In this document: piece by piece, positions 1,308 to 46,500 of the stretch
Position numbering within the stretch: position 1 is the first letter of the stretch
Layout: the number at the start of each line of letters is the position of its first letter
NCBI RefSeq assembly: GCF_003611605.1
Contig: NZ_RAVX01000011.1
Coordinates: 132,811 to 196,810, forward strand
Direction of reading: 5' to 3'
Length of the DNA: 64,000 nucleotides
Origin: Corallococcus sp. AB011P
Lineage (GTDB): Bacteria > Myxococcota > Myxococcia > Myxococcales > Myxococcaceae
Translations under genes and position numbers: made by a program
Notes under the pieces: generated by a model
Told to the model about the DNA's origin: nothing
What the model saw: only the letters and a program-made list of their open reading frames with translations
Database searches by the model: none

Positions 1308-1792
1308 GCGGCTTCCGCCAGCTGTGCTCGTTCCAGGTGGGTGACCACCTGTTCGGCCTGGACATCGAACGCGTGCAGGAGATTTTGCTCCCGCCCCCGC
1401 TCACGCGTGTCCCCGGCGCGCCTCCGGAAGTGGCGGGGCTGCTCAACCTGCGCGGGCAGATCGTCCCCGCCATCGACCTGCGCCGCCGCCTGGACCTGCC
1501 CGAAGGCACCGCCCCCGCGGACGCGCCCCACGTCGTGCTGCGCGGCGACGAAGGCGCGGTGAGCCTTCGCGTGGATGCCATTGGCGACATCCTCCCCTTC
1601 GAGCAGTCGGACCTGGCGCCGCTGCCGGACAACCTGCGCGGGCCGCTGCGCTCGCTGCTGTTGGGTGTCCATGCGCTGCCGGACCGGCTGCTGCTCGTGT
1701 TGTCCGCGGACGCGGTGGTGGACGGGCTCTCACCCGCGTCCAACGCGTCCGCCTCCCCTTCCCCCCCCGTGCTTCCCCAGGAGTCCCGCTGA
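1304..1792 (+). CDS. cheW: CheW coupling protein (162 aa)
   Basis: CheW-like domain ([12 protein letters not shown]...[19 protein letters not shown]). The ATG overlaps the cheA stop. The start was computed from the ORF-track frame. Confidence 0.85.
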
Positions 1793-3894
1793 TGGCCCGC
1801 CCGACCGCGCCCGCCGTGAAAACCACCCTCTTCCAGCGCCTGGGCGGCAAGGCCCCCCTGACGGCCGCCGTGCAGAAGCTCTACGCGCGGGTGATGACGG
1901 ACGCCCTGCTCAAGCCCTACTTCCGCCGCGCGGACATGCTCCAGCTGCAGCGCCAGATGGTCGCGTTCCTCACCCAGCACCTGGGCGGGCCGGCCGTCTA
2001 CAAGGGCCCGTCGATGCGCGAAGTGCACGCGCGCATGGAGCTCAAGCCCCATCACTTCGGGCGCGTCGCCGAACACCTGGCCACCGTGCTGGATGACCTG
2101 GACGTGCCGGGCCCCATCGCCCGCGAGGTGCTGGCCGCCGTGGGCACGAGGCAGGACGACACCGTGAGCAGGCCCGTGGCGAAGGCCGCCTCGCGGACCG
2201 CCGCCGTGAAGCGTGCTCCGGCGCGTGCCTCCCGGACGGAGGGACGCCGGGTCGCCGTGGCGTCCGCACCCGCGGCCCGGTCCTCGCGCCGCCGCGCGCC
2301 CACGCCGCTCGAAGGAGCCCTGAGCGAGGCGGTGCTGGACGCGGCGAGCGTCAACCTGTTCGTCCTGGACACGGACCTGGCCATCGTCTTCTCGAACGCG
2401 TCCTCCTCGGAGGCCATCGAGCGCATCGACCAGGCGTCTGGCCTCCGCGACGGCGCGGGGGACGCGGGCGGCGACTTCCTCGCCCACTTCGAGCATCAGC
2501 TACGGCTGGAGGAGGAGCGGCTGCTGGATCCCTCCGCGCTGCCGCATGAGGCCCACTTCGCGGTGGGCCCCACCCTGCTCAAGGCGCGCATCGACGGCAT
2601 CTCGGGCCGGGGCGGAGCGCTCACCGGCTACGTGGTGACGTGGACGGACGTCACGGATCAGCAGCGCGCGGACACGGAGTTGGCGCGCCTCAGGGCCATG
2701 ATGGAGAACGCGCCCACCTGCGTGATGGTGGCCGACCTGGACCTGAAGATCATCTACCTGAACCCCGCCTCGCGCCGGCTGTTGCAGCGCGTGGAGAAGC
2801 ACCTGCCCGTCGCCGCGGACCGGGTGCTGGGCTCCCACATCGACGTCTTCCACCGGGACGTGACGTACCAGCGGAAGATCCTGTCCAACGACAAGAACCT
2901 GCCGGTGCGCGCGAACATCCCCATTGGCCCGGAGACCGCGGACCTGCTGGTGACGGCGGTGTACGACGGCCAGGGCCGCTACCTGGGCCCCATGGTGACG
3001 TGGGAGCTGATCACGGAGAAGCTCGCCGTGCAGCAGCGCGAGCAGGATCTGGACACCACCCTGCGCGGCATCTTCCAGGAGGTGACGCAGCACTCGCAGA
3101 CGCTCGCCGCGTCGTCGCAGGAGCTGTCCAGCGTCAGCCAGCAGATGGTGAGCAACGCCCAGGAGACCGCGGCGCAGGCCACCCAGGTGTCCGCTGGCGC
3201 CGAACAGGTCAGCCGCAACGTGCAGAGCGTCGCGTCCGGCATGGAGGAGGTCAACGCGAACATCCGCGAGGTGGCGCGCAACGCGAGCTCCGCCGCCAAG
3301 GTGGCCGCGTCCGCGGTGAAGCTCGCGGACTCCACGTCCAACGTCGTCGGCAAGCTGGGCACGAGCAGCCAGGAGATCGGCAAGGTCATCAAGGTCATCA
3401 CCTCCATCGCGCAGCAGACGAACCTGCTGGCGCTCAACGCGACCATCGAGGCGGCCCGCGCCGGCGAGGCGGGCCGGGGCTTCGCGGTGGTGGCCAACGA
3501 GGTGAAGGAGCTGGCGCGCGAGACGGCCCGCGCCACGGAGGACATCGGCCAGAAGATCGGCACCATCCAGGGCGACACCGAGGAGGTGGTCAACGCCATC
3601 CTGGAGATCGGCGCCACCATCAGCCGCATCAACGAGCTGCAGACGTCCATCGCCTCCTCCGTGGAGGAGCAGACGGCCACCGCGGGAGAGATCCTCCGCA
3701 ACGTGGGCGAGGCCGCCAAGGGCAGCCAGCAGATCTCCGAGAACATGGCCGCCGTGGCGGAGGCCGCGCGCAGCACCACCGAGGGCGCGGGCAGCACGCA
3801 GCGCTCGGCGGTGGAGCTGGCCCACATGGCGCAGTCGCTGCAACGGCTGGTCGTGCAGGTGGACACCTCCGACAAGCCGGCGCGGACGAAGTAG
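1792..3894 (+). CDS. Soluble methyl-accepting chemotaxis protein with an N-terminal group-I truncated haemoglobin (2/2 Hb) domain, PAS domains and a C-terminal MCP signalling domain
   Basis: The N-terminus aligns with the trHbN pattern (LGG...Y.G..M..VH....I...HF..V..HL). The C-terminus carries the classic MCP signalling motif [31 protein letters not shown]. No TM segments. The start overlaps the cheW stop. Confidence 0.8.
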
Positions 3895-3928: not shown

Positions 3929-5458
3929 GTGCGAACCGGATTGAAGCGGTGGTGGGAGCTGGGCCAGGTGGCCCGTGCCTCCACGCGCCTGCGGCGGGTG
4001 TCCCGGCCCCAGGACGAGGAGCGCGCGAGGCACGAGCTGGCCCAGCGGCTGTTGGGCCTGCGCGGGCTGCCCCAGAAGGTGGGCCAGGTGCTCACGCTCG
4101 CGGAGCTGGGCGCGGACACGCCGGGGTTCGGTTCGCTCGCGGAGGCGCCCTCCCCGCTCGCGCCGGAGGCCGCGCTGGCGGAGGTGTCCCGCCGGTTGGG
4201 CCGTCCGTGGCGGGAGGTGTTCAAGTCGCTGGACGGCGTGGGCATCGCCGCGTCGCTGGGCCAGGTGCACCGGGGCGTGCTGCATGACGGGCGCGCCGTG
4301 GCCGTGAAGCTGCGGCACCCGGGCATCGCGGAGGCCGTGCGGGATGATCTGCGCGCGCTGGGGTGGCTGGCCGCGCCGCTGGGAGGCTGGCGCGGGAAGC
4401 TGGACCTGTCCGCCTACCGCCACGAGCTGGCCCGCATGCTCCAGGGCGAACTGGACTATCGCCACGAGGCCCAGGCCCTGTCGGACGCGGGATCGCGCAT
4501 GGCGGACGTGCCGGGCGTCGTCGTCCCCGCGCCGGTGGACGCGCTCACGCGGGAAGACCTGCTGGTGATGACCTGGGTGGAGGGGGCGTCGCTCGCGGAT
4601 GGCTGGCGCTGGAGCGAAGCGGACCGCCGCGCGCTGTCCACCACGCTGGTGCGGCTGTTCCTCCACGGCTGCTTCACGTGGGGCGCGCTCCACGCGGATC
4701 CGCACCCGGGCAACTACCGCGTGTCGCGGGGACCGGACGGCAAGCCCGTGCTGGGAGTGCTCGACTTCGGCTGCGTGAAGCCGCTGCCGCCGGAGCTGGC
4801 CGTGGGGTTGGGGCGATTACTCTCGCTCCTCAAGTGTCCGAGCACTCCGCCGCGCCCGGAGCAGCTCCTGTCCGCGTGGGTGACGCTGGGCTTCGCGCCG
4901 GAGCTGCTGGAGCCCATGGCGGAGGTGCTGCCCGCCGTCAGCCGCGTGCTGCTGGAGCCCTTCCTCCTGGACCGTGCCTTCCACGCGCGAAGCTGGCGGT
5001 TGGGCGAGCGGCTCACCGAGGCGCTGGGGCCGCACCGCTGGAACTTCCGGGCAGCGGGGCCCGCGTCGCTCCTGTTCGTCCTGCGCGCGTTCCACGGGCT
5101 GGTGCGCCACCTGGACGTGCTGGATGCGCCCATCGCCTGGGGGCCGCTCCTGGACGAGGCCCGAGCCCCGTCGCTGCCGCCCCCGCCTTCGCCACCGGAG
5201 GCGCGCGTGGAGGGCACCGCGCGCTACCTGAAGGTCCAGGTGACGGAAGGAGGGCACACGCGCGTCGCGCTGACCTTCCGCGCGGACGTGACGGCGCACC
5301 TGGAGGACCTGCTGCCGGAGGACCTGTCGCGCAAGCTGGCGGCGCGGGGCGTGGATCCGGCGGCCATGGGTATCGCGGCGGTCGCGGCGGGGCTGCGGCC
5401 GTCGGAGTTGTTCCACCTGGACGAGGGCCCCCGGCGTGTCCGGGTCTGGCTCGAATGA
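3929..5458 (+). CDS. ABC1/UbiB-family atypical protein kinase (AarF-domain kinase)
   Basis: ABC1 family signatures (GQVLTLAELG..., LDYRHEAQALS, VLDFGCVKPLP). Embedded in the che operon on the same strand. GTG start. Confidence 0.7.
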   Translation: MRTGLKRWWELGQVARASTRLRRVSRPQDEERARHELAQRLLGLRGLPQKVGQVLTLAELGADTPGFGSLAEAPSPLAPEAALAEVSRRLGRPWREVFKSLDGVGIAASLGQVHRGVLHDGRAVAVKLRHPGIAEAVRDDLRALGWLAAPLGGWRGKLDLSAYRHELARMLQGELDYRHEAQALSDAGSRMADVPGVVVPAPVDALTREDLLVMTWVEGASLADGWRWSEADRRALSTTLVRLFLHGCFTWGALHADPHPGNYRVSRGPDGKPVLGVLDFGCVKPLPPELAVGLGRLLSLLKCPSTPPRPEQLLSAWVTLGFAPELLEPMAEVLPAVSRVLLEPFLLDRAFHARSWRLGERLTEALGPHRWNFRAAGPASLLFVLRAFHGLVRHLDVLDAPIAWGPLLDEARAPSLPPPPSPPEARVEGTARYLKVQVTEGGHTRVALTFRADVTAHLEDLLPEDLSRKLAARGVDPAAMGIAAVAAGLRPSELFHLDEGPRRVRVWLE

Positions 5459-5480: not shown

Positions 5481-5816
5481 ATGGTCACCATCGGCATGAA
5501 CTACGAAGTGCGTGAAGGCAAGGCGGAAGCCTTCGAGCGGAAGTTCGCGCTCGTGCTGGAGGCGATGCGCAAGCTGCCGACGCACGTGCACACGGAGCTG
5601 TTCAAGAGCGTGGGGGCGCCGGAGCGCTACCTCATCGTCTCCGAGTGGCACAGCCGCGAGGGCTTCGACGCCTTCGTCGCGTCCGAGGCCTTCCACCGCG
5701 TGACGGACTGGGGCGCCAGCGCCATCCTCGCGAGCCGGCCGCGCCACGAGGTGTATGGCGAGAGGGCCGCCAGCGCCCCCGCGGGCCGCTGCCCGGTCGC
5801 GCACGCGGTGCGGTGA
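5481..5816 (+). CDS. Antibiotic-biosynthesis-monooxygenase (ABM/Dabb) domain protein
   Basis: About 100-aa ferredoxin-like ABM pattern (YLIVSEWHSREGFDAFVASEAF). Compact, co-directional with the che genes. Confidence 0.6.
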   Translation: MVTIGMNYEVREGKAEAFERKFALVLEAMRKLPTHVHTELFKSVGAPERYLIVSEWHSREGFDAFVASEAFHRVTDWGASAILASRPRHEVYGERAASAPAGRCPVAHAVR

Positions 5817-5827
5817 AGCGGGTGCGA

Positions 5828-6892
5828 ATGAACGCCATCCGGGTCCTGGTGGTGGACGACGCGGCCGTGGTGCGGCGCCAGGTGTCGCTGCTGCTGGGCG
5901 CGGCCCCGGGCCTGGAGGTCGTCGCCACCGCGCCCAATGGCCGCATCGCCCTGGCGAAGGTGGAGCAGTTCCAGCCGGACGTCGTGCTGTTGGACCTGGA
6001 GATGCCGGAGCTGGACGGGCTGGAGACGCTGAAGCTCCTGCGCCAGCGCGCTCCAGAGTTGCCCGTGGTGATGTTCAGCGCGCTCACCGAACGCGCGGGC
6101 GTGTTGACCCTGGAGGCGCTCGCGCTGGGGGCCCGCGACTACGTGACGAAGCCCACGTCCGCGGGCGGGATGAACATCACCGTGGAGGCCGTGCGGGATG
6201 AGCTGGTGCGCAAGCTCAAGGCGCTGAACGTGCGCACGCCGTCCGCCGCGCCCTCGCCGTCACCGGTGACGCGCGAGCCCGTGTCCCGGCCTCGAATGCC
6301 CGCGCGGGTGGAGGCCATCGTCGTCGGCGCGTCCACCGGAGGCCCGGGCGCGCTGGTGCGCCTGGTGTCCGCGCTGCCCGCGGACCTGCCGGTGCCGGTG
6401 TTCATCGTGCAACACATGCCGCCCCTCTTCACCCGGCTGCTCGCGGAGCGGTTGCAGGGGGTGACGCCGCTCACCGTGCGCGAGGCGGTGACGGGCGCCA
6501 CCGTGCAGGCGGGCGCGGTGTGGGTCGCCCCCGGCGACTTCCACCTGGCCGTGTGCCGGGATGCGACGGGCGTGCGGCTGCTCACGCACCAGGGGCCGGC
6601 GGAGAACGCGTGCCGTCCGGCGGTGGACCTGCTCTTCCGCTCCGCGGCGGAGGTGTACGGCGCGGGGGTCCTGGCGGTGGTGCTCACCGGCATGGGCCAG
6701 GACGGGCTGCGCGGCTGCCGGCGGGTGAACGAGGCAGGTGGTCAGGTGGTGGTGCAGGACCAGGCCAGCTGCGTCGCCGGCAGCATGCCGGGCGCGGTGG
6801 AACAGGCGGGGCTCGCGGATGCCGTGATGCCCCTGGAGGCGCTGGCCCCGGAGCTGGCGCGGCGCGTGGACGCGCGCGGACGGAGGACCTGA
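5828..6892 (+). CDS. cheB: Chemotaxis response regulator protein-glutamate methylesterase CheB
   Basis: N-terminal receiver (VLVVDDAAVVR...DVVLLDLEMPELDG) and C-terminal CheB methylesterase (GASTGGPGAL...FIVQHMPP...GMGQDGL). An alternative GTG start is at 5822. Confidence 0.85.
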   Translation: MNAIRVLVVDDAAVVRRQVSLLLGAAPGLEVVATAPNGRIALAKVEQFQPDVVLLDLEMPELDGLETLKLLRQRAPELPVVMFSALTERAGVLTLEALALGARDYVTKPTSAGGMNITVEAVRDELVRKLKALNVRTPSAAPSPSPVTREPVSRPRMPARVEAIVVGASTGGPGALVRLVSALPADLPVPVFIVQHMPPLFTRLLAERLQGVTPLTVREAVTGATVQAGAVWVAPGDFHLAVCRDATGVRLLTHQGPAENACRPAVDLLFRSAAEVYGAGVLAVVLTGMGQDGLRGCRRVNEAGGQVVVQDQASCVAGSMPGAVEQAGLADAVMPLEALAPELARRVDARGRRT

Positions 6893-6894
6893 AC

Positions 6895-7785
6895 ATGTCC
6901 CTGCTTCCCGACGACTTCGCGTACCTGCGGCAGCGCGTGCTGCGCCGCTCCGGGCTCGTGCTGGAGTCAGACACGCACGCGCTGGTGGAGACGCGGCTCA
7001 CGCCCCTCATGCGCGAGGAGCGGCTGCCGGACCTCTCCGCCCTGGTCTCCCGGTTGCGCTCGCAGCCGGAGGGCAGTCCGCTCCACCAGCGCCTGGCGGA
7101 AGCGCTGGCCAACCACGAGACGGCCTTCTTCCGCGACGCGAGCGTCTTCGAGGCCCTGCGCACCACGGTGCTCCCCACCCTGCTGGCGAAGCGCGTCCGC
7201 ACGCGGACCCTGCGCATCTGGTGCGCGGCGTGCGCCTACGGCCAGGAGCCCTACAGCGTCGCGATGACGCTGGCCGAGGCCGGGCTGCTCATCACCGGAT
7301 GGACGGTGTGCATCCTCGCCACCGACTTCTCCACCCGCGCGATCCTCCGTGCCTGCGAGGCCCGCTACGACGTGAAGGAGATCCACCGCGGCCTGACGCC
7401 CGAGCTGCGCCAGCGCTACTTCCACCAGGAGCGCGACGGGTGGCGGCTGAGCGAACAGGTGCGCAAGCCAGTGGAGTTCCGGCAGCTCAACCTGCTGGAA
7501 GACTTCCCGCTGGAAGCGCCCGTGGATCTCGTCTTCCTGCGCAACGTGATGATCTACTGGGACGTGCCCACCCGGCGCGCGGTGCTCGCCCGCGTGCGGC
7601 GGATGCTCCACGCGGACGGCTACCTGGTGCTGGGCGCCGCGGAGGCCTCGCCCTTGGTGGAGGACGGCTTCACGCGGCACCTGGTTGGACAGACGAGCTG
7701 GTACCGCCCCACACCCGCCTCGCCCGGCGTCGGCGCGCCCGTGGAGGACGCGCGGCGCTCGCCCCGCTCCGGCGCTACACCTTGA
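6895..7785 (+). CDS. cheR: Chemotaxis protein methyltransferase CheR
   Basis: CheR N-terminal and SAM-dependent methyltransferase domains (ETAFFRD..., RIWCAACAYGQEPYSVAM, LVFLRNVMIYWD). The start lies 3 nt after the cheB stop. Confidence 0.85.
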   Translation: MSLLPDDFAYLRQRVLRRSGLVLESDTHALVETRLTPLMREERLPDLSALVSRLRSQPEGSPLHQRLAEALANHETAFFRDASVFEALRTTVLPTLLAKRVRTRTLRIWCAACAYGQEPYSVAMTLAEAGLLITGWTVCILATDFSTRAILRACEARYDVKEIHRGLTPELRQRYFHQERDGWRLSEQVRKPVEFRQLNLLEDFPLEAPVDLVFLRNVMIYWDVPTRRAVLARVRRMLHADGYLVLGAAEASPLVEDGFTRHLVGQTSWYRPTPASPGVGAPVEDARRSPRSGATP

Positions 7786-8695
7786 GGCGGATGGCGCCCG
7801 GCAACAGCGTCATGGTGCAGGGCAGCCGGCCCGGCGTCTCGCCGTCCACGTCCAGGAACACGTCGCCCGTCAGCGGCTCCGCGTGGAGCGTGCGGCAGCG
7901 CAGCCGCCGCGTGCCCTTCCAGGTGACGTGGTCGCCGTTGTAGACGCCCTTGGACTTGAGGACGAAGTCGGACAGGCCGTAGTTGGACCAGATGGTGACG
8001 TCGAAGAGGCCGTCGTGCGTCACCGCGTCAGGCGCCACGAACATGCCGCTGCCGAAGTAGCGGCCATTGGCCACGGCCACCGCGGTGACGCTCACCGTCT
8101 CCGGCTCGCCGCCGTCCACCGTGAGGCGCACCTGCTGCTCCTGGTACTTGATGAGGCCCTTCACCGTGCCCCACATGAAGCTCAGGTTGCCGCCCAGCGC
8201 CTTGCTGCCCTGATTCACCTCGCGGGCCACCACCGCGCTCACGCCGAACGAGGCGATGTTGGAGAAGAAGCGCGTGGCCGGCTTGCCGTCGTTGTCGGTG
8301 AACTCCAGCCGCCCCACGTCGAAGGGCTCGGTGGTTTCCGTGCGCAGCCGCTCCAGCGCGGACGTCAGCTCCAGGTCCCACCCGAAGGTGCGGCGGAAGT
8401 CGCCGCCGGTGCCTCGGGGCAACAGGCCCAGCGTGGCCCGGGGGTTGATGACCTGTCCGTCGCGGAAGAAGCCGTTGGTGACCTCGTTGAGGGTGCCGTC
8501 GCCGCCCACCGCGACGATGCACTCGTAGCCATCGTCGATGGCCTGCCGCGCCAGACGCGCCGCATCCATGCCGCCGCTGGTGAAGCCGTACCCGAAGTCA
8601 CCGAGCACCTTGCCCACCTGCGCGGAGATCTCCACCCATCGCTTCCCCGTCTGCCCGTTGGCGCTGCGCGGGTTGACCACGAGGAACGTCTTCAT
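7775..8695 (-). CDS. Lipid kinase of the DAGK_cat / YegS-BmrU family
   Basis: DAGK catalytic domain with VAVGGDGTLNEV and GLLPRGTGGDF motifs. Convergent with cheR, overlapping by about 10 nt. Confidence 0.75.
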   Translation of the reverse strand: MKTFLVVNPRSANGQTGKRWVEISAQVGKVLGDFGYGFTSGGMDAARLARQAIDDGYECIVAVGGDGTLNEVTNGFFRDGQVINPRATLGLLPRGTGGDFRRTFGWDLELTSALERLRTETTEPFDVGRLEFTDNDGKPATRFFSNIASFGVSAVVAREVNQGSKALGGNLSFMWGTVKGLIKYQEQQVRLTVDGGEPETVSVTAVAVANGRYFGSGMFVAPDAVTHDGLFDVTIWSNYGLSDFVLKSKGVYNGDHVTWKGTRRLRCRTLHAEPLTGDVFLDVDGETPGRLPCTMTLLPGAIRLKV

Positions 8696-8812
8696 TCAGT
8701 GCCTTCTCCCTGCTGCCAGAACGGCCTGTTTACGCAATTGTGAGCCAAGGCTCCACTCCGTGACCCACGGGAGGGCCACTCCGCCCGGGGTGTTTGTCAC
8801 CCGGCCCCGTCC

Positions 8813-9532
8813 ATGCTGGGCTCTCCGCCCCCTGTTTTCGTCCCGGTCCCCCGAGTGAAAGCCCCATCCCCCACCGAGCAGCTCGCGCCCCACCGGGAGG
8901 CCACGCGCGCCCTGGACTGGGCGCTGCCCGCGCTCCGGGCGGACCTGGCGGCGGCGGCGCGGCAGCCCTTCCGGGAGACAGGGGCCCAGGAGGACTTCCT
9001 GCACCGCCATGACGCACCGGCCCATGAAGCCCAGGGACCGGCGCGGACGGAGCGCTTCGAGCGGGCCCTGGCCCGGGTGCGGCGGCTCGCGGACGCGGGC
9101 CAGCCGCTGACCTTCTCCCGGATGGTGGAGGTCCAGTCGGAGCTCCTGGGCGGGCCCACGGGCTTTCGCACCGGGGACGCCTTCGCGAGGGGTGGCGCGC
9201 ACCGCTATGCGCACGCGCCCGGCCTGGAGGCGGCCTTCCGCGACAAGGTGGAGACGGACGCGCGGGAAGAGCGTCACCCGGTGGTACATGCCACGCGGTT
9301 GTACCTGGACCTGTGTTTCTTCCACCCCTTCCCGGACGGCAACGCGCGCGCGGCGCGGCTGTGGCTGGAATACATGCTGCGCCGGGGCCGGCTGCCCACG
9401 CCACCGCTGGCGCCCGTGGTGCTGTGGCCCAAGCGCCCGGGCGACGCGGTGAACTACACGCGGCTGGCGAGGCTGCTGGCCCGGACCATCGCGGGGCCGG
9501 ACGCCCCGTGCCGCAACGAGGTGCCTGAATGA
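8813..9532 (+). CDS. Fic/Doc-family (Fido) domain protein with a variant active-site motif
   Basis: HPFPDGNARAARLW matches the Fic core HxFx(D/E)GNGRxxR with G-to-A in the third-last position. Start uncertain (first ATG of the ORF). Confidence 0.55.
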   Translation: MLGSPPPVFVPVPRVKAPSPTEQLAPHREATRALDWALPALRADLAAAARQPFRETGAQEDFLHRHDAPAHEAQGPARTERFERALARVRRLADAGQPLTFSRMVEVQSELLGGPTGFRTGDAFARGGAHRYAHAPGLEAAFRDKVETDAREERHPVVHATRLYLDLCFFHPFPDGNARAARLWLEYMLRRGRLPTPPLAPVVLWPKRPGDAVNYTRLARLLARTIAGPDAPCRNEVPE

Positions 9533-10194
9533 GCAGTGACGCATCGGCTTTCACGTGGCGCCGCATCCGCGACAGCCTGGATGCCTACTCACCGCAATCG
9601 CTGGCGTCCCGGCTGAGGGAGGCCCTGGCCCCCCTGCGGACCGGAAGCATTCACACAAGCCGACTCAAGCAGGCGAAGAACGCCGTGCAGGACCTGCTCC
9701 AGGCCGAGCTGGGTCCCTGGTACATCGAGAGCGGCCTGCCCCTGGGCAATGAGGTGCTGGGGGGCTATTGCTGGTGCCACTCGTTCTTCAACCAGAACCC
9801 GCCGCATCGGACCTTGGATGTGGATGAGAACATCCAGCTCATGCTGGAGGCGCTGGAGCGGATCCGTTCGTTCCTGTACGCGCTGGACGGCGTGTATCAG
9901 GCCTCGCGCCGTCAGCTCGAGTTGGCGGCCGACGACAAGGCTCTCCGGGCGAAGGCGCTCGCGGAAGGGCTGGTGCGGACCGTGGACCTGACGGCGGAGA
10001 CGACGTCCTGCGAGGAGACCTGGTACCAGGTCGCGCAGGACGCCATGACGTGGTGCATCGAGGCAATGGAGCTGCCCTTGTCGGAGGCCACGCAGGAGCA
10101 GTTGGACACGGCCTTCGTCTTCACATCCTGGATTGCGCCTCCCCCGGAGGCTCTCCGTGAGGCGGCGGCGCGGGTGGCGGAGGTGGCCGTATGA
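9529..10194 (+). CDS. Hypothetical protein, paralogue A of a tandem pair (conserved GGYCWCH motif)
   Basis: ATG overlaps the Fic-like stop (ATGA). About 45% identity to the next gene. Conserved blocks: IRDSLD.Y, LGPWY.E.GL.LGNE..GGYCWCH.FF, NIQL...ALER. GC lower than surroundings. Confidence 0.6.
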   Translation: MSSDASAFTWRRIRDSLDAYSPQSLASRLREALAPLRTGSIHTSRLKQAKNAVQDLLQAELGPWYIESGLPLGNEVLGGYCWCHSFFNQNPPHRTLDVDENIQLMLEALERIRSFLYALDGVYQASRRQLELAADDKALRAKALAEGLVRTVDLTAETTSCEETWYQVAQDAMTWCIEAMELPLSEATQEQLDTAFVFTSWIAPPPEALREAAARVAEVAV

Positions 10195-25670: not shown

Positions 25671-25763
25671 TCCGACGAAGACGTCGAATTCTGCCGGATT
25701 TCCGTCTTGCAGTGCGGTGCGTATTCTTCAGGAGTCCTGTTTCTCTTGAAGGAGCCGCTCGCG

Positions 25764-27359
25764 ATGACGCCCACGGAACGGACCATTGCCCGTCTTCCCG
25801 CCCACCTGCGCCGCTACGTGGTGGGCCAGGACTACGCGGCGTACACGCCCCGGGATCAGGCGGTGTGGCGGCACATCCTGGGGCAGCTGCGCGAGCACCT
25901 GAGCGACAAGGCGCACCCCGTCTACCTGGAGGGCCTGGAGGCCACGGGCATTGGCGCGGAGGCCATCCCCAGCCTGGACGAGATGAACGAGAAGCTGTCC
26001 AAGCTGGGCTGGGCCTGCGTGGCGGTGCGCGGCTTCATCCCGCCGGCCGTCTTCACGGAGCTGCAGGCGCTGGGCGTGCTGGCCATCGCGGCGGACATCC
26101 GCACGCACGAGCACATCCAGTACACGCCCGCGCCGGACATCGTCCATGAGAGCGCGGGCCACGCGCCCATCATCGCCAACGCGCGCTATGCGCAGTACCT
26201 CAAGGCCGTGGGGCTGGTGGGCTTCAAGGCCATTGCCAGCGTGGAGGACCAGGCCGTCTTCGAGGCCATCCGCAACCTGTCCGTGGTGAAGGAGGACCCC
26301 ACCGCGACGGAAGAAGAAATCGCCCACGCCCAGGCCCGCCTGGAGGCCGCCAACGCCAGCCACCGCTACATCAGCGAGAGCACGCGCGCGAGCCGCCTGT
26401 ACTGGTGGACCGCGGAGTACGGGCTGATTGGTGACCTGAAGCACCCGCGCATCTACGGCGCGGGCCTGCTGTCCAGCATCGGCGAGGCCCGGCACTGCCT
26501 GACGTCCGCCGTGCACAAGCTGCCGCTGGGCGTGGCGTGCGCGGACACGGACTACGACATCACCCGCATGCAGCCGCAGCTCTTCGTGGCGCGCGACTTT
26601 GAACACCTCTTCGAAGTCCTGGCCGAGTTCGAGTCCACGCTCGCGTGGAAGCGCGGCGGCGACCTGGGCCTGAACGAGGCGCTGCGCGCGCGCACGGTGA
26701 ACCACCTGGTGCTCGCGGACGGCCGCGAGGTGACGGGCAAGGTGGTGGAGCTGCTGCCCGCCGCGAAGGACGTGGCCCCGGGCCTGTCCACCGCGCTGGC
26801 CCGGCTGGAGGGCCCCATCCTCACGTCCGTGAACGGGCACGCCGTGGACAAGCCGTTCAGCGGCGCGGCGCTGGTCGCCTTTGGCCAGGGCACCCTGCCG
26901 GAGCGCGGGAGCTTCACGCTCACGCTCGACAGCGGGCTGGTGCTGGAGGGCTTCGCGGTAGGCGGCGGTGAGGTGATTGCCCTGCGTGGCACGCTGGCCG
27001 GCCAGGAGCTGACGCTGCCGTCCATGGCGCGCCTGTACCTGACGGAGCAGCTGCCGTCCGTGGCGGGCGGCCCCGCCGACCCGGGCACGTGGGACGAGTG
27101 GTTCGGGGAGCTGGACGCCTTCACCGCGGGCGACGGCGAGGCCCAGGCGCGCGAGCGCAAGGCGCAGGCCCTGCCCCCGTCGCTGGCCGCCCTCTACACG
27201 GAGGTGCGCCGCATCCGCGAGACGGGGCAGCTGGCCGCCGAGCGGCTGGAGCAGATCGCCCGGGCGAGCACGGACTTCCCAACCGACTGGCTCCTGCGCG
27301 CAGAGGTCGCGGAGCTGCGCGGCGAGGTGCCCGCTCGGCGCGAAGCGGCGCAAGCGTAG
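25764..27359 (+). CDS. phhA: Phenylalanine-4-hydroxylase (biopterin-dependent aromatic amino-acid hydroxylase) with an about 250-aa C-terminal extension
   Basis: Catalytic core with iron ligands (PDIVHESAGHAP, YWWTAEYGL, GAGLLSS). The bacterial enzyme is normally about 300 aa; here it is 531 aa. Confidence 0.75.
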   Translation: MTPTERTIARLPAHLRRYVVGQDYAAYTPRDQAVWRHILGQLREHLSDKAHPVYLEGLEATGIGAEAIPSLDEMNEKLSKLGWACVAVRGFIPPAVFTELQALGVLAIAADIRTHEHIQYTPAPDIVHESAGHAPIIANARYAQYLKAVGLVGFKAIASVEDQAVFEAIRNLSVVKEDPTATEEEIAHAQARLEAANASHRYISESTRASRLYWWTAEYGLIGDLKHPRIYGAGLLSSIGEARHCLTSAVHKLPLGVACADTDYDITRMQPQLFVARDFEHLFEVLAEFESTLAWKRGGDLGLNEALRARTVNHLVLADGREVTGKVVELLPAAKDVAPGLSTALARLEGPILTSVNGHAVDKPFSGAALVAFGQGTLPERGSFTLTLDSGLVLEGFAVGGGEVIALRGTLAGQELTLPSMARLYLTEQLPSVAGGPADPGTWDEWFGELDAFTAGDGEAQARERKAQALPPSLAALYTEVRRIRETGQLAAERLEQIARASTDFPTDWLLRAEVAELRGEVPARREAAQA

Positions 27360-40475: not shown

Positions 40476-40976
40476 CTACTTCGGGGCGGGCCCTGGCTCC
40501 GGGTGCGCTGTCAGCGCGCGATACGCCCGGTTCCAGTAGAGCAACGGTTCTCCGTCCACTCCCCGCTGGATGCGCTCCACACGGCCCACCAGCAACAGGT
40601 GATCGCCGTAACGGTGCACATCCAACAGAGCGCACGCCAGACCCACCAGGCTGTCCTGCACGAAGACGCCTTCGTCGAACATCCGGCCTTCGGCCTCCCC
40701 CGTCGCGCAGCGGACCGACACGTCGCGTTGGATGGTGGACAGCACGCTCACACTGAAGCGGCGGGCGGCCTCCACGCGCTTGAGCGTGCGGGAGGACTGC
40801 TGCAGCGCCAGGACGATGAGCGGAGGCGTCAGGGAGAGGGAGCTGAAGGAGCTGACCGTCGTCGCCGCGATCCCGTCCGCGTCACGGACGGAGACCACCG
40901 CCACCCCGCTCGCCCACCGGGACATCGCCTCCCGGAAGTCCAGGGCCGACACCCCTTCAGTACCGCTCTGAGTCAT
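40476..40976 (-). CDS. Flavin reductase-like (NAD(P)H:flavin oxidoreductase) domain protein
   Basis: Flavin_Reduct pattern (FREAMSRWASGVAVVS...TVSSFSSLSLTPPLI). Confidence 0.7.
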   Translation of the reverse strand: MTQSGTEGVSALDFREAMSRWASGVAVVSVRDADGIAATTVSSFSSLSLTPPLIVLALQQSSRTLKRVEAARRFSVSVLSTIQRDVSVRCATGEAEGRMFDEGVFVQDSLVGLACALLDVHRYGDHLLLVGRVERIQRGVDGEPLLYWNRAYRALTAHPEPGPAPK

Positions 40977-41073
40977 GTGCCGGTCTCTACCACCCGCCCC
41001 GCCACCCGGTCAGCACTTCCTCCAATCCATTGGCGGAATACCAACGCAGTGGCACTGCCCTCCAGGCCCGTCC

Positions 41074-43470
41074 ATGGCCGGATCCACCCGCCCTCCGTAT
41101 GCTGGCCGGCTGGAGGCGCCCATGGATCCGTTGTGGGGGGAGACGCTGAGGCGTCTGGATGCGCTGCTCGTCCAGGTGTGTGACCTGGAGGAGGCCCGCG
41201 CGTCGAAGCTCCGGGGGGAACAGGAAGCGGGCTGGGATGCCGTGCGCACCACCGTGCGCCCCTCCACCGCGGAGCTCGCCTTCAGCTCGGCGCTCGCGGA
41301 GACACCGCTCCTGGGGACTTCGCCTCCCCTTCCCTTCGCCCGCCTGCGGGCTTCGCTTCGCGTGGACACCGTGGAGGAGGAGGCGTTGCTGCTCCTGCTC
41401 GCGACGTGGCTGGAGCCTCGGTATTCGCGCCTGTTCGCCGTGCTCCAGGACGAGACCGCGCAGGGCTGGAACGTGGAGCGGTTGCTGCTCACCGTCCTGG
41501 GACGTACGCCTGCTCGCGCGCAGCGGTTGCTGGCGTCACTGACCGACAGCGGCCTCCTGGTGGGCGGTGGATTGTTGCAGACGGGCGCCGGTGCTTTTCC
41601 TCCCATGCTCCGGCCCGTGGACCTGGCTCCGGAGGTCCGCGAGGCCCTGCTGGAGTTGCCCCGTCCGTCCGTGATGGGTGAGCTTTCTTTGGAATGGCAT
41701 GGACCGGAGGTGCTGCCTTCCTCCTCGCGCGGGACATTCGCCGTCGTGCATGGCGAGGGCGAACGGCTGGGCGTGGCGCTGGGACTCGCTGGCGAAGCCG
41801 GTGTGCCGCTGGTCGTCGCTCGTTGGGCGGGGGCTCCAGAGCCGGTTCCCATGGCCCGGGCCCTTTGGCGTCTGGCGTCCGTGCGCGGCGCGCTGTTGGC
41901 CGTGGACATGTCCGGTGCTGAGCCGGGGCTGGCTCTCTCCGTCACGGAGACGCTGTCCGGGCTGTGCCAGCGGTTTGGCGGGCAGGCCCTGGTGCTCGCG
42001 GACTCCGCGCAGCCTGTCGCCGTGCCGCACCATGAGGCTCCCGCTCTGGGCTTCGTGCAGCGGCGGACCCTGTGGATGGAGGAGGCCCGGGCTCGGGGAC
42101 TGTCATTGACGGAGGCGGAGGCGGGACGGCTGGCGTCTGGCTTTCGGGGCGGGCTTCAGGAGATCCGCCGCGTGTTCGACTCGGCTCCGGGCGGGGGTGC
42201 GGAGGCGCTTCGTGCCGCTGGCTCGCGGCTCGTCCAGGTGCCCTTGCGACATGGCTACCGGCTGGAGGCGTCGCGGACGTTCGCGGAGCTCGTGGTGCGT
42301 GACACCACTCGCGCGGCCTTGGAGCGTTTGCTGTTCTACGTGGCGCAGCGCGACCGCGTCGCCGAGGAGCGGGGCCTGTCTCGCCGCTTCCGGCTGCACA
42401 CCGGCCCGGTGGCGCTGTTCTCCGGACGCTCCGGCACCGGCAAGACCCTGGCCGCGGAGGTCATCGCCCATGCGGTGGGCCGGCCGCTGTACGTCATCGA
42501 CCTGTCCCGGCTCGTCAGCAAGTACGTGGGCGAGACGGAGAAGAACATCGACGAGGTGCTGTCCCACGGCGAGCGCTCCGGCGCCGTGCTGTTCTTCGAC
42601 GAGGCGGACTCGCTGTTCTCCGCGCGCACGGAGGTCAGCAACGCCAATGATCGCTTCGCCAACCTGGAGGTCGGCTTCCTCCTCCAGCGCATCGAACGCC
42701 ATGACGGGCTGATCATCCTCGCCACCAATCTTCAGACGGCCATCGACGAAGCGTTCCTGCGCCGCTTCCACGCGCGCATCGAGTTCCCCTTCCCCGAGGT
42801 CGAGGAGCGCCGCCGCATCTGGGAGCTGATGCTTCCGGAGGGCGTTCCTCGCTTGGGGACGCTCGACCTGGCGGGCCTGGCGCAGCGGCATCGGCTGGCG
42901 GGCGGTGACATCCGCAACGCCGCGCTCAAGGCCATCTTCCTCGCGGAACAGGCCGGTGCCCCGCTGGCCCAGGAGCACCTGGAGCGCGCCGTCGCGCTGG
43001 AGTTGTATGAGCTGGGCCGGCTCTCGCGGCGTCCGGAGGCGGATGCTCCCTCGGATGCGGGCACACGCTTGCGGCGCGTGGCGGAAGTGTTCCAGGAGGC
43101 ACTGGATTCGCAGCTCAGACAACACTTCCTCAAGGAGGTCCACATCCTCCACGGCTCTCCCACCCGGGAGGCGCTCGCGGGGAAGCGGCCCGCTGTGTCG
43201 CTCGCGCTCTACCGGCTGGCGGTCACCCAGAACGGTGCGCTGCGGCTGGGGCTCATCGTCTCCGCGTGGTCCCACCGCGCGGAGGAGGAACATGAGCTGC
43301 TCGGCGTGCTGCATGGGCTGCTCTCACGTGGACTCCCGCACGAGCTGGATGGTCGCAAGCTCACACCTCGCGTCCAGGAGAGTTATGACTTCGACCTGCT
43401 CCACCGCTTCTGGAGCAGTCATGGACATCCCATCCGGGCCTCGCTGGTCCTCGATGTGGAGATGACCTAG
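41074..43470 (+). CDS. AAA+ ATPase with a large N-terminal domain and a C-terminal classic AAA module (Afp15/Pvc15-like by architecture)
   Basis: Walker A GRSGTGKT, Walker B VLFFDEAD, sensor/arginine finger region (ILATNLQTAIDEAFLRRFHARIEF). A start at 41074 or 41122 is equally plausible. Confidence 0.75.
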   Translation: MAGSTRPPYAGRLEAPMDPLWGETLRRLDALLVQVCDLEEARASKLRGEQEAGWDAVRTTVRPSTAELAFSSALAETPLLGTSPPLPFARLRASLRVDTVEEEALLLLLATWLEPRYSRLFAVLQDETAQGWNVERLLLTVLGRTPARAQRLLASLTDSGLLVGGGLLQTGAGAFPPMLRPVDLAPEVREALLELPRPSVMGELSLEWHGPEVLPSSSRGTFAVVHGEGERLGVALGLAGEAGVPLVVARWAGAPEPVPMARALWRLASVRGALLAVDMSGAEPGLALSVTETLSGLCQRFGGQALVLADSAQPVAVPHHEAPALGFVQRRTLWMEEARARGLSLTEAEAGRLASGFRGGLQEIRRVFDSAPGGGAEALRAAGSRLVQVPLRHGYRLEASRTFAELVVRDTTRAALERLLFYVAQRDRVAEERGLSRRFRLHTGPVALFSGRSGTGKTLAAEVIAHAVGRPLYVIDLSRLVSKYVGETEKNIDEVLSHGERSGAVLFFDEADSLFSARTEVSNANDRFANLEVGFLLQRIERHDGLIILATNLQTAIDEAFLRRFHARIEFPFPEVEERRRIWELMLPEGVPRLGTLDLAGLAQRHRLAGGDIRNAALKAIFLAEQAGAPLAQEHLERAVALELYELGRLSRRPEADAPSDAGTRLRRVAEVFQEALDSQLRQHFLKEVHILHGSPTREALAGKRPAVSLALYRLAVTQNGALRLGLIVSAWSHRAEEEHELLGVLHGLLSRGLPHELDGRKLTPRVQESYDFDLLHRFWSSHGHPIRASLVLDVEMT

Positions 43471-43501
43471 CGTCCCTAGCACTGATGGTGCGGGGGGGAC
43501 C

Positions 43502-46500
43502 GTGCGCATCCGTGACCAGGGCCCGAAGGCCTCCGCCAAGGCCATGCTCCGGAAGAGCTCCGGGCGCACTCCCTCGTCCTCCGCGGCCCTTCCCCGTGCA
43601 CCGGGTGTCGTTCCCCGGGGCCCCTCCTCGTCCAATCCCGCACGTGAGCTGGCGGCACGGCTCGCGTCACTGAAGGGCGCGGCGCCTGCCCTCCATGGGC
43701 CCGTGCTTCGCGATGCCGCGCGCGACCTGGAGCGCCGCTGGAGCGACCCGGCGTGGCGCACGCTGGGCGGTCCGCGCTCGCACCTCTTCGAGCCGTGCCC
43801 GGTCCACCCGCCGGAGGTCGCGCTGCTCTCCACGCCCGGCGCCATCGAGGCGGAGCTGGGCATCCACGGACTCTCACCCCAGCCGAACACCGGGCTCGCG
43901 CAGGCGGCTGGCGCGTCCCAGCCCGCGACCCTCGCGCAGCAGGAGGAGGACGCTCGACGGCGTGATGCGGCACGCATGGCCGTCCTGCCTCCGGGCTCCG
44001 CTGAACAGCTCGGAGACACCGCCGCTCGGCTCGCCGAGGCCCGTGCTTCAGACCTCGCACCCGCTGCGGACACTGAAGAGGCGGAAGCGGCGGGACTTGG
44101 GGGCAGCACTTCTCCTGCGCCCGAGGACATCGCGGCGACCACCGTCGATGCGCCCAGCGCGGGCGGCGAACTGGCAACGCCGGATCAAGCTCCCGCGCCC
44201 GCATCCATCCCCACGGGGACGGCTCCCGGCGGCATGGACGACGCCGCGCGCATCGACACGCTGGTGACCGCACTGTCCAGCGAGGGCGATGTCCACATCG
44301 TCGTCCGTCAGGCATCCCCTGGCACAGGGCCCCGGGAGCCTCCTTCCATCCAGACGGATGCCACGGTCGACACGGGCCTCCCCGAAGCGCGCCCGATGGT
44401 GCCCGCACCTCCGGCCGAGATGGACTGGCAGAAGCAACTGGCCGCGGCCCACGCGCAGGGCGTCCAGGGCATCAAGCACGGTCTCGAAACCGCGCCGGAT
44501 CCAACGGGCGCCGTTGCGGCGGTGGAGCCCCCTGCCCGCCTTCCCGCTCCGCCTCCTGCTCCGGCCGCACCTGTCACGGCAGGGCCCATCCCCACTGCCC
44601 CGGTGATGGGCACGGACGCGGATCCGGTCGCCGCATGGAAGGGCCGCATCGCCAGCAGCACTGCGCGGGTCCCGGAGCCCCAGCTTCCTCCGGCGCCCCG
44701 CTACACGTTCAAGATCATCCAGGCCGCCGTGGACCCCAACGCGGTCCGCGCCGCGCGCCTCAAGCAACTGGAGGACGAAGGCAAGAAGGCCATCACCCCG
44801 GCGAAGCAGCCGAAGGACCTTCCGACCATCCCGGACGACCCCACCGGCAAGGCCTCCTCCCTGGTGGATGCGAAGTGCGAACGGAAGCTGGAGGTCAAGG
44901 ACGCCAGGCTCCCCGACCTGCTGAAGAGCCCGCTGGGCCATGTGCCGGAGATTGGCGCGCAGCTCATGCGCGACGACGGCGGGCACACGCTCATCAAGGG
45001 CCCGCTCGGCGACATCGTCTACAAGCCCGGCGGCCCCAAGCCCACCGACCCGGAGAAGCTCAAGGACTGGACGCGCCTCCAGAAGAAGATCACCGCCGAG
45101 GCCGACAAGCAGAAGAAGGCGAAGGTCCAGCCCAAGGAACCCGCGAAGGGCATCACCGTCCTCGAACAGGCCGCTCCCGCGCCCATCAACGTCCCCGACT
45201 TCGCTCGCGTGGACATTGGCGACGTGCTGGCGCGGCTGCTCGCCGCTCCGGACAAGTACGCGGACGCCTCCGTCCAGAAGGCCCGCGAGGCCTATGTCCC
45301 GGGCGGCCTGGATGCGTCCTGGGGCGTGCCGCTCATCGCCGCTGAACGGCCCATCTTCGCCGCGGAGCTCCAGCGCGTCGCGGACGCCGCGCAGATCAAG
45401 AAGGCGGACCTGGACGCGAAGGTGGAGGCCCGCCGCAAGCAACTGGTGGACTCGCACGCCGCCACCACCGGCTCGCTCAGCAAGGCCCACGAGGAGGCGA
45501 AGAAGAGTCTGGAGGAGGGCGGCAAGTCCTTCGCCGACGCCCTGTCGCGCATGCGCGCCTCGCTCGACGCGCAGTCCGAGGCCAAGGCCGCCGCCATCAA
45601 GGGCGGCGTCGACCTGACCGAGGCCCGACGCAAGCGCGACGCGCTCATCGCGGCCGTGGACACCAAGGTGAGCAACTGGGTCGTCCGGTACGACCAGAAC
45701 GGCAAGCGCTTCAAGGAAGCCTTCGCGAAGGCCGCGACCGACCAGATGCACGCCTACGAGCTCGCCGCGCTCCAGGACGAGTGGGAGCTCAAGAAGGACG
45801 CCGGCGATGATCCGGTGAAGCTCAAGGCGGCCACGGAGGCGTACCGCCCCACCAAGAAGTGGCTGGACGACCGCCGCAAGGAGATTGGCGCTGTCGTCGC
45901 GAAGGCGAAGCGCGACATCGACCAGAGCGTGGAGCGCTACCAGCAGGAGCTGCGCGACGCCGGCAAGGAGGCCCGGGAGGTCATCCGCGACTGGCATGCG
46001 AAGCAGATCGGCTACGAGCGCGGATTCTGGGACCGGCTGCTCGGGTGGATCATCGACTGGCTGGACGTCGCCCACGACGAGAGCCGCGCGTGGGAGGCCG
46101 CTCGCGCGGCGGAGAACAAGACGTCGTTGGATCAGAACATGCTGTTCCTCGCGGAGGTGCGCCTGCGCCAGGGCGAGGAGCTGGACGCGGAGACCATCAA
46201 GGGCAACCACGCTCTCAGCGAGGAGCAGCAGGCCATCCTGCTCTCCTACTACGGCAAGGGTGGCAAGGACGCGGTGCAGGCGCTCGCGGAGGGCCTTGCC
46301 GTGCGCATCATCGGCCAGCGCCGCAAGCCGCTGATGGAGGCCCTGGAGAAGGAGCTGCTCGCGTCCACCGACCTGGAGCGGTTGAAGGTCGTCGTCGACC
46401 AGCAGGAGCCCCTCTTCAGCAACCGCGCCCGCAACATCTCCCTCAAGGTCTGGGAGGGCGTGGACCAGTGGGGCACGGACGAGAAGAAGATCTTCGACGC

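Follow-up and report, generated by a model that had tools for sequence, protein, structure and literature searches.

What is a haemoglobin doing at the front of a myxobacterial chemoreceptor, and is it what the receptor senses with? The question is raised by a gene near one end of the 64,000-nucleotide stretch of Corallococcus sp. AB011P DNA analysed here (contig NZ_RAVX01000011.1, positions 132,811–196,810; G+C about 70%), which we call the window and in whose coordinates the features below are given. The gene (1792–3894, + strand) encodes a 700-amino-acid protein, for which an original prediction, made from the DNA letters alone, had proposed an N-terminal truncated haemoglobin (trHb) connected through PAS domains to the signalling domain of a methyl-accepting chemotaxis protein (MCP). 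As far as its sequence can tell, the protein is indeed a real soluble chemoreceptor with a truncated-haemoglobin domain, and it has a second candidate haem domain as well, a PAS domain like those of Aer2. This second domain adjoins the signalling helix, and the globin sits on a linker modelled with very low confidence, so the globin, which had been put forward as a distinct gas-sensing input, is more likely an accessory or second input than the only gas sensor.

Nor is the fusion a new kind of input, as had been suggested. The orthologous Cc-5 cluster of C. coralloides DSM 2259, with its receptor Cc_4972 (WP_014397685.1), was published in 2018 as a putative aerotaxis or energy-taxis system, predicted in silico, for which a horizontal origin was proposed (Sharma, Parales & Singer, BMC Genomics 2018; PMC6194562). 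Cc-5 and the cluster in the window, which comes from another Corallococcus genome, have the same gene order, CheA-CheW-MCP(globin+PAS)-ABC1-ABM-CheB-CheR, and both are without CheY. The trHb–MCP fusion and the aerotaxis hypothesis are thus known from the literature, and the window adds no new kind of system. The 2018 account contains no typing of the globin, inspection of haem residues or link to Aer2 (PMC6194562), and what can be added here is the assignment of the globin to the trHbN type, the recognition of an Aer2-type PAS-haem domain and of a disordered tether, and a corrected evolutionary picture. The new elements of that picture are ABC1 and ABM genes in distant clusters with CheY, deletion variants within Corallococcus, and moderate constraint on the globin.

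A globin and two PAS domains in one soluble receptor

The receptor reading frame is intact. Its ATG, the longest possible start in frame, overlaps the stop codon of the preceding cheW (TGATG at 1790–1794) and has AGGAG 8 nt to its 5′ side. Pfam matches cover Bac_globin (PF01152) at residues 12–108 (E=6.2e-18; 65.6 bits against a cut-off of 21), PAS/PAS_8 at 298–341 and MCPsignal (PF00015) at 497–659 (E=1.2e-32), values that make the domain fusion real, far beyond chance. The same scan, at E<=1, found neither HAMP nor Protoglobin (PF11563). Hydropathy over 19 residues reaches a maximum of only 1.5, so that no membrane segment is expected, and the proposal of a cytoplasmic MCP signalling domain holds. 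The closest proteins are from Corallococcus sp. AB004 (94% identity) and C. coralloides KYC2213 (91%), a 700-residue ‘MULTISPECIES Corallococcus’ entry is 82% identical, and orthologues at 81–94% identity occur in many Corallococcus species. A full-length AlphaFold2 (AF2) model has a mean predicted local distance difference test score (pLDDT) of 74.6 and a predicted template-modelling score (pTM) of 0.31. It comprises a confident globin (residues 13–117), a stretch at pLDDT of about 30 (119–172), two PAS folds (176–286 and 288–407), a short low-confidence junction and then one long helical module (420–693); because of the low pTM, we draw no conclusion from the model on whether the globin touches either PAS domain.

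By every sequence and fold criterion, the N-terminal domain (residues 12–118; 1825–2145, +) is a group-I truncated haemoglobin (trHbN or T1), as originally predicted. When residues 1–137 were compared with all PDB sequences, the best matches were all group-I trHbs, led by those of Tetrahymena pyriformis (3AQ5, 5e-19) and Mycobacterium tuberculosis (HbN, 1e-16) and including Chlamydomonas THB1 and LI637 and the Synechocystis and Paramecium proteins; group II proteins were weaker by several orders of magnitude. An AF2 model of residues 1–125, built on a 31-sequence alignment, has a mean pLDDT of 94.2, and Foldseek superposes it on the trHbN structures 3AQ5, 1IDR and 1DLW with template-modelling (TM) scores of 0.88–0.90 and root-mean-square deviations of 0.8–1.0 Å, group II structures again ranking below group I. 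Topological positions could be mapped through the T. pyriformis mutants Y25F, Q46E and Q50E (3AQ7, 3AQ8, 3AQ9), giving Tyr31 at B10, Phe44 at CD1, Leu52 at E7, Met56 at E11 and the proximal histidine, His79, at F8. The register with HbN places Val92, and no Trp, at G8. Both the proximal histidine and the B10 tyrosine that a working trHb was expected to show are therefore present, and so are the two Gly-Gly motifs (Gly18-Gly19 and Gly65-Gly66). None of 55 globin domains of the receptor family departs from Tyr at B10, Phe at CD1 or His at F8, and both Gly-Gly motifs are nearly invariant. Position E7 is occupied by Leu in 45 of them; at E11, 28 have Gln and 20 have Met, the residue typical of the Corallococcus clade.

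The domain thus shares its Gly-Gly motifs, TyrB10, PheCD1, HisF8, LeuE7 and ValG8 with M. tuberculosis HbN and the T. pyriformis protein (TM about 0.9), and differs from such free group-I trHbs in being part of a chemoreceptor and in having Met rather than the Gln of HbN at E11 in most Corallococcus. Like HemAT and other globin-coupled sensors of the S family, the receptor is a soluble MCP with a haem-type globin at its N-terminus. The globin of HemAT, however, is a 3/3 sensor globin joined directly to the coiled coil, whereas this one is a 2/2 group-I trHb, without any Protoglobin match, and is followed by a disordered linker and two PAS domains; the distinction from the HemAT fold that had been drawn from the DNA alone was correct. 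In a 2020 review of globins, the list of chimeric T globins from bacteria is confined to groups O and P.

How strongly is this globin maintained? Ratios of non-synonymous to synonymous substitution (dN/dS; Nei–Gojobori, 66 pairs among 12 Corallococcus orthologues) are 0.15 for the MCP module, 0.26 for the second PAS domain (PAS2), 0.40 for the globin, 0.60 for the linker and 0.64 for the first PAS domain (PAS1). The globin is thus maintained in Corallococcus under only moderate constraint, less tightly than PAS2 and the signalling module. A single comparison with the orthologue in a complete Corallococcus genome (L001) had given 1.41 and pointed to an absence of constraint, an idea dropped in favour of the 12-orthologue median. 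Relaxation is instead confined to some lineages, in which hallmark trHb positions have changed (G65R in L001, P67T in L008, F89L/C in L010/L011) and for which pairwise globin values are 0.85–1.41.

Between globin and PAS1 lie about 54 residues rich in Ala, Arg, Ser and Pro (119–172; 2146–2307, +; AF2 pLDDT about 30), with 15 Ala and 11 Arg in 58 residues. In other phyla the corresponding linkers are 26–75 residues long, of low complexity and unrelated in sequence. A tether that is disordered, of this length and hypervariable makes it unlikely that the globin is an in-line transducer, and likelier that it is an accessory or modulator.

The two PAS domains turn out to be quite different from each other. 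PAS2 (residues 293–410; 2668–3021, +) is a predicted PAS-haem domain of the Aer2 type: residues 296–418 match the Aer2 structures of Pseudomonas aeruginosa (3VOL, 8.7e-14; 4HI4, 8e-13) and Vibrio cholerae (6CEQ, 1.8e-12), and the residues that matter in P. aeruginosa Aer2 have their equivalents here, Met187 in Met311, His234 in His354 (Eeta, within ‘IDVFH’), Leu264 in Leu385 (Hbeta) and Trp283 in Trp404 (Ibeta), the position of His239 being occupied by Tyr. In Aer2 the histidine coordinates haem, the tryptophan hydrogen-bonds the bound O2 and the leucine is displaced on binding, and the signal is relayed by a C-terminal DxT motif (PMC10107281). Among 183 PAS2-type domains from 120 homologues, the histidine is kept in 182, the leucine in 181 and the tryptophan in all. 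PAS1 (176–290; 2317–2661, +) is a diverged Aer2-like domain that keeps Trp284 and the DxT motif, and is the least constrained folded domain of the receptor. Its haem-ligand histidine is replaced by Glu in all 12 Corallococcus orthologues; PAS1-type domains of other phyla have the ‘FH’ histidine in 78 of 98 cases and the tryptophan in every one. From the window alone a shifted haem histidine seemed conceivable, but the species alignment, in which flanking histidines are unconserved (‘SRFEQQ’ in two species), removed this candidate, and for the same reasons PAS1 is probably haem-free in Corallococcus. The original prediction was right, then, in placing PAS domains between globin and MCP, and went astray in treating them as mere connectors.

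Resemblance to Aer2 of P. aeruginosa, V. cholerae and V. vulnificus extends beyond single residues, since those receptors too are soluble, carry one to three N-terminal PAS domains with the Eeta-His, Hbeta-Leu and Ibeta-Trp, and have their most C-terminal PAS next to the output. There are also differences: no di-HAMP unit lies between the last PAS and the kinase-control module, the DxT position of PAS2 reads L-I-T, there is an extra trHb at the N-terminus, and the hairpin may have about 40 heptads against 36 (counted in residues, which is not a class-model assignment). The NCBIfam Aer2 model (NF041847) matches residues 181–419 with 188 bits, below its equivalog cut-off of 1200.

The kinase-control hairpin itself (residues 420–693; 3049–3870, +) is a continuous helix in the AF2 model, with a conserved MCP tip at Glu559 and some 21+20 heptads on the same residue count. 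It begins about 10 residues after the end of PAS2 (407–410). PAS2 is thus wired almost directly into the signalling helix and the globin is flexibly tethered, and the PAS region is no passive connector. Pairs of Glu/Gln at heptad spacing over 443–471 (with more at 625–626, all at the level of pattern), together with the cheR and cheB genes, would fit adaptation by methylation; the receptor sequence has no C-terminal pentapeptide. A signalling domain with its tip, and CheA, CheW, CheR and CheB encoded alongside, mark the protein as an MCP.

The gene cluster within and beyond Corallococcus

The complete cheA-cheW-MCP-cheB-cheR operon that had been proposed needs some correction, in that those genes are there and in that order, but two others stand between receptor and cheB, cheY is missing, and only the 3′ part of cheA falls in the window. 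On the + strand, the cheA portion (3–1307; HATPase_c 4e-15, and P5/CheW-like domain, CheW 1.6e-34; its 5′ part beyond the window) is followed by cheW (1304–1792; 162 residues, CheW 9.8e-30), the receptor gene, a GTG-initiated gene for an ABC1/UbiB-like atypical kinase of 509 residues (3929–5458; PF03109, 4.5e-48), a gene for a 111-residue protein of the antibiotic-biosynthesis-monooxygenase (ABM) fold (5481–5816; PF03992, 1.1e-15), cheB (putative start; 5816–6892; Response_reg 1.5e-25, CheB_methylest 1.7e-60, receiver plus methylesterase) and the methyltransferase gene cheR (putative start; 6889–7785; CheR 6.8e-51, CheR_N 1.5e-9), after which comes a convergent lipid-kinase gene. The ABC1 protein matches the UbiB model TIGR01982 below its cut-off (7.6e-36) and has no hydrophobic segment, and so is soluble. 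The ABM protein shows a weak, sub-threshold likeness to the haem-degrading HmuQ (3.7e-4) and to the C-terminus of a ‘heme-binding protein’ model (2e-11), similarities that hint at a haem-related role.

In L001 the complete CheA has Hpt, H-kinase_dim, HATPase_c and CheW domains and no receiver, and no cheY was found near the cluster. Upstream of cheA and 176 nt from it, Corallococcus genomes have a same-strand gene for a PAS regulator with a LuxR/GerE-type helix-turn-helix (6249–7172 in L001), which is kept even in the deletion variants described below. Genes flanking the cluster are also syntenic in other Corallococcus genomes.

Thirteen Corallococcus loci were compared besides the window. All seven genes, which the window also has, are intact and in frame in ten of them. 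In two assemblies (GCA_003668965.1 and GCA_003986945.1), a deletion has taken out cheA and cheW together with 296 codons from the start of the receptor gene, which encode globin, linker and PAS1, and has left a gene for a 404-residue PAS2+MCP protein followed by ABC1, ABM, cheB and cheR (positions 5512–7215 of those loci). In Corallococcus sicarius (locus positions 29–1741), PAS2 has been deleted exactly and in frame, ‘...VTWDD’ being joined to ‘ITEKL...’, so that globin and PAS1 are kept; the two PAS domains have similar C-terminal strands, between which a recombination probably took place. The C. sicarius locus also has no ABC1 or ABM gene, and only 28 nt of contig precede its receptor gene, which puts cheA and cheW outside the view. 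The two types of deletion (cheA-cheW-globin-PAS1, and PAS2 with ABC1/ABM) are independent.

How far does this kind of receptor extend outside the genus? Relatives of the globin were sought by an exhaustive HMMER search and Pfam scans; a word-indexed search with the globin alone gave a single match, few exact words being shared. HMMER found 3161 relatives at E<=1e-3, and nine of the ten long single-globin relatives that were scanned are MCPs, so the trHbN–chemoreceptor fusion is widespread rather than the curiosity of one genus. Two relatives, P0219 and P0258, at first looked like globin–MCP fusions without PAS, but their sequences contain a PAS1-type domain missed by Pfam, so that a globin wired directly to an MCP is unsupported. 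In two others, P0241 and P0266, Bac_globin occurs inside a CheA-like fragment (between HATPase_c and the CheW-like domain) and after a CheW domain; these may be either run-ons of gene calling or further globin fusions in chemosensory proteins.

Of the 120 top receptor homologues, 64 lack the globin. Globin-less homologues share the PAS-PAS-MCP core and stand in the same CheA-CheW-MCP-CheY-CheB-CheR setting, an example being that of Hyalangium rubrum (62% identity, 8001–9749 of its locus, in a cluster ordered CheY-CheA-CheW-MCP-CheY-CheB-CheR), so that PAS-containing MCPs are not unique to Corallococcus among the myxobacteria. Six clusters from outside Corallococcus were compared, namely those of two Nitrospirales genomes, three metagenome contigs and the globin-less H. 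rubrum. Their order is CheA-CheW-receptor-[ABC1-[ABM]]-CheY-CheB-CheR, often with CheX and PilZ thereafter, and CheY is beside the receptor in all six; its presence in other lineages and absence from Corallococcus implies that the Corallococcus version lost it. ABC1 and ABM are absent from most of the related clusters examined, but one contig (P0019, JGI 3300047160) has a receptor with two tandem globins followed by ABC1, ABM and CheY, and another of these distant trHb–MCP clusters (L003, 12141–14172) has ABC1 in the same position with CheY after it. These two genes are therefore not Corallococcus-specific additions but part of an older cassette. A separate gene for a classical globin (PF00042) stands at the end of L003. 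The earlier statements that the cluster is unique to one myxobacterium, and that ABC1 and ABM are absent from related clusters (PMC6194562), are outdated by the Corallococcus, Hyalangium, P0019 and L003 data.

Elsewhere in the window there are several genes of a different kind. A 759-residue protein (30863–33139, –) has Major Vault Protein repeats and an MVP shoulder domain (4.8e-45), and is a bacterial homologue of the shell protein of eukaryotic vaults. An 833-residue AAA-ATPase with a winged-helix domain is encoded directly before a 2726-residue open reading frame (together 40972–51643, +). There are also genes for a protein with LysM and a VgrG3-like C-terminal part of the peptidoglycan-hydrolase type (27466–29199, –) and for an unusually long (562 residues) protein resembling biopterin-dependent aromatic amino-acid hydroxylases (25671–27356, +).

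Which haem would do the sensing?

What the domains are, how far their key residues are conserved, that the linker is disordered and which genes make up the operon can be read from the data above. From anatomy and conservation we infer haem binding, the identity of the ligand, the direction of signalling and the output, and to the scheme that results, the best supported, we give about even credence: the receptor would sense gas in the cytoplasm with two haems, PAS2 being the transducer and the globin an accessory. In such a receptor, presumed to be a dimer with two kinds of haem domain, PAS2 would carry b-type haem on His354, and Trp404 would hold the O2, by analogy with Aer2. Arrival of the ligand would move the Ibeta strand and send the signal straight into the coiled-coil hairpin without a HAMP domain; the hairpin would set CheA activity through CheW, and CheR and CheB would adapt the receptor. 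In the globin, His79 would be the ligand of a second haem and Tyr31 would lie in the distal pocket; the domain is more likely an accessory input or a modulator of the PAS module than an in-line transducer, either as a second gas or redox site or as a local unit processing nitric oxide (NO) or O2. PAS1, having lost its haem-ligand histidine, is probably a spacer or modulator.

The reverse arrangement, in which gas is sensed primarily by the trHb, as in a HemAT with a 2/2 globin, and the PAS domains do no more than pass on its conformational change, seems to us unlikely. It would account readily for the invariant residues of the haem pocket and for the purifying selection on the globin overall, for the survival of globin and PAS1 in C. 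sicarius after the loss of PAS2, and for the predominance of MCPs among the scanned long single-globin relatives. It would, however, demand in-line mechanical coupling across a disordered, hypervariable linker, which is unlikely, and it leaves aside a PAS2 that has the full Aer2 signature for haem and O2 and adjoins the output helix. The occurrence of the same cluster around globin-less homologues also tells against it, as does the fact that it is the most C-terminal PAS that transduces in tested Aer2 receptors (PMC10107281).

Might the tethered trHbN rather be an enzyme or a buffer, an NO dioxygenase or local O2 store that conditions the PAS-haem, perhaps with ABM and ABC1? The established activity of M. 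tuberculosis HbN is NO dioxygenation. It is HbN that the globin most resembles in fold and pocket (TyrB10, LeuE7 and ValG8, with GlnE11 in most relatives), and a flexible tether would suit a module acting in trans, but Met at E11 in most Corallococcus departs from the Gln of HbN, and no reductase partner is evident in the cluster. Recurrence of ABM and ABC1 genes in distant clusters and the faint likeness of ABM to HmuQ could be fitted to the same idea, against which stands the absence of these genes from most related clusters. According to the papers that cite Bonamore (2007), Streptomyces avermitilis has a trHb–ABM chimera; trHb and an ABM-fold protein would be associated in both cases, though the two are fused there and here ABM is a separate gene two positions downstream of the receptor, and the likeness gives no more than a hint of a functional link. 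The whole case being inferential, we rate the enzyme or buffer as rather improbable. To a still more elaborate version of it we attach a similarly small likelihood: the receptor might be a two-haem logic device, in which a tethered HbN-type globin (possibly consuming NO or buffering O2) gates a HAMP-less Aer2-like PAS-haem, with the UbiB-like kinase and ABM (possibly acting on haem or quinols) as conserved accessories. If true, this would be a class of chemosensory input distinct from both HemAT and Aer2.

Several observations count against a dual-haem receptor led by PAS2. No CheY was found in any of the 13 Corallococcus loci. Met at E11 means that ligand chemistry may differ from that of HbN, and, because the inter-domain arrangement in the AF2 model is unreliable, there may be a docked, ligand-dependent contact between globin and PAS. 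The C. sicarius variant argues that a globin can serve as the haem input that is left, or else that the receptor is decaying. Moreover, for a review of aerotaxis from July 2026 the receptor is still something predicted in silico. Decay could indeed be more general, what Corallococcus keeps being then the remnant of a system gained by horizontal transfer, which today signals little or not at all, a possibility also raised by Sharma et al. (PMC6194562). The loss of CheY, set against its presence in all six outside clusters, would agree with this, as would the two independent types of deletion and the substitutions G65R, P67T and F89L/C with their raised dN/dS. Ten of the 13 Corallococcus loci nevertheless have the full set of seven genes, intact and in frame, both PAS2 and MCP are strongly constrained and the globin moderately so, and an orphan CheY could serve, C. 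coralloides being reported to have 12 chemosensory systems (PMC6194562). On this balance we doubt that the system is merely a remnant, and assign that reading a low probability.

For the dual-haem receptor the analysis pinpoints two candidate haem ligands, His79 in the globin and His354 in PAS2, and nature supplies a pair for comparison in the PAS2-less variant of C. sicarius and the globin-less relative in Hyalangium. Biochemical confirmation would make it the first signalling protein based on a group-I truncated haemoglobin to be characterised, and would reveal how oxygen or NO is read by a myxobacterium that glides and has no flagella.

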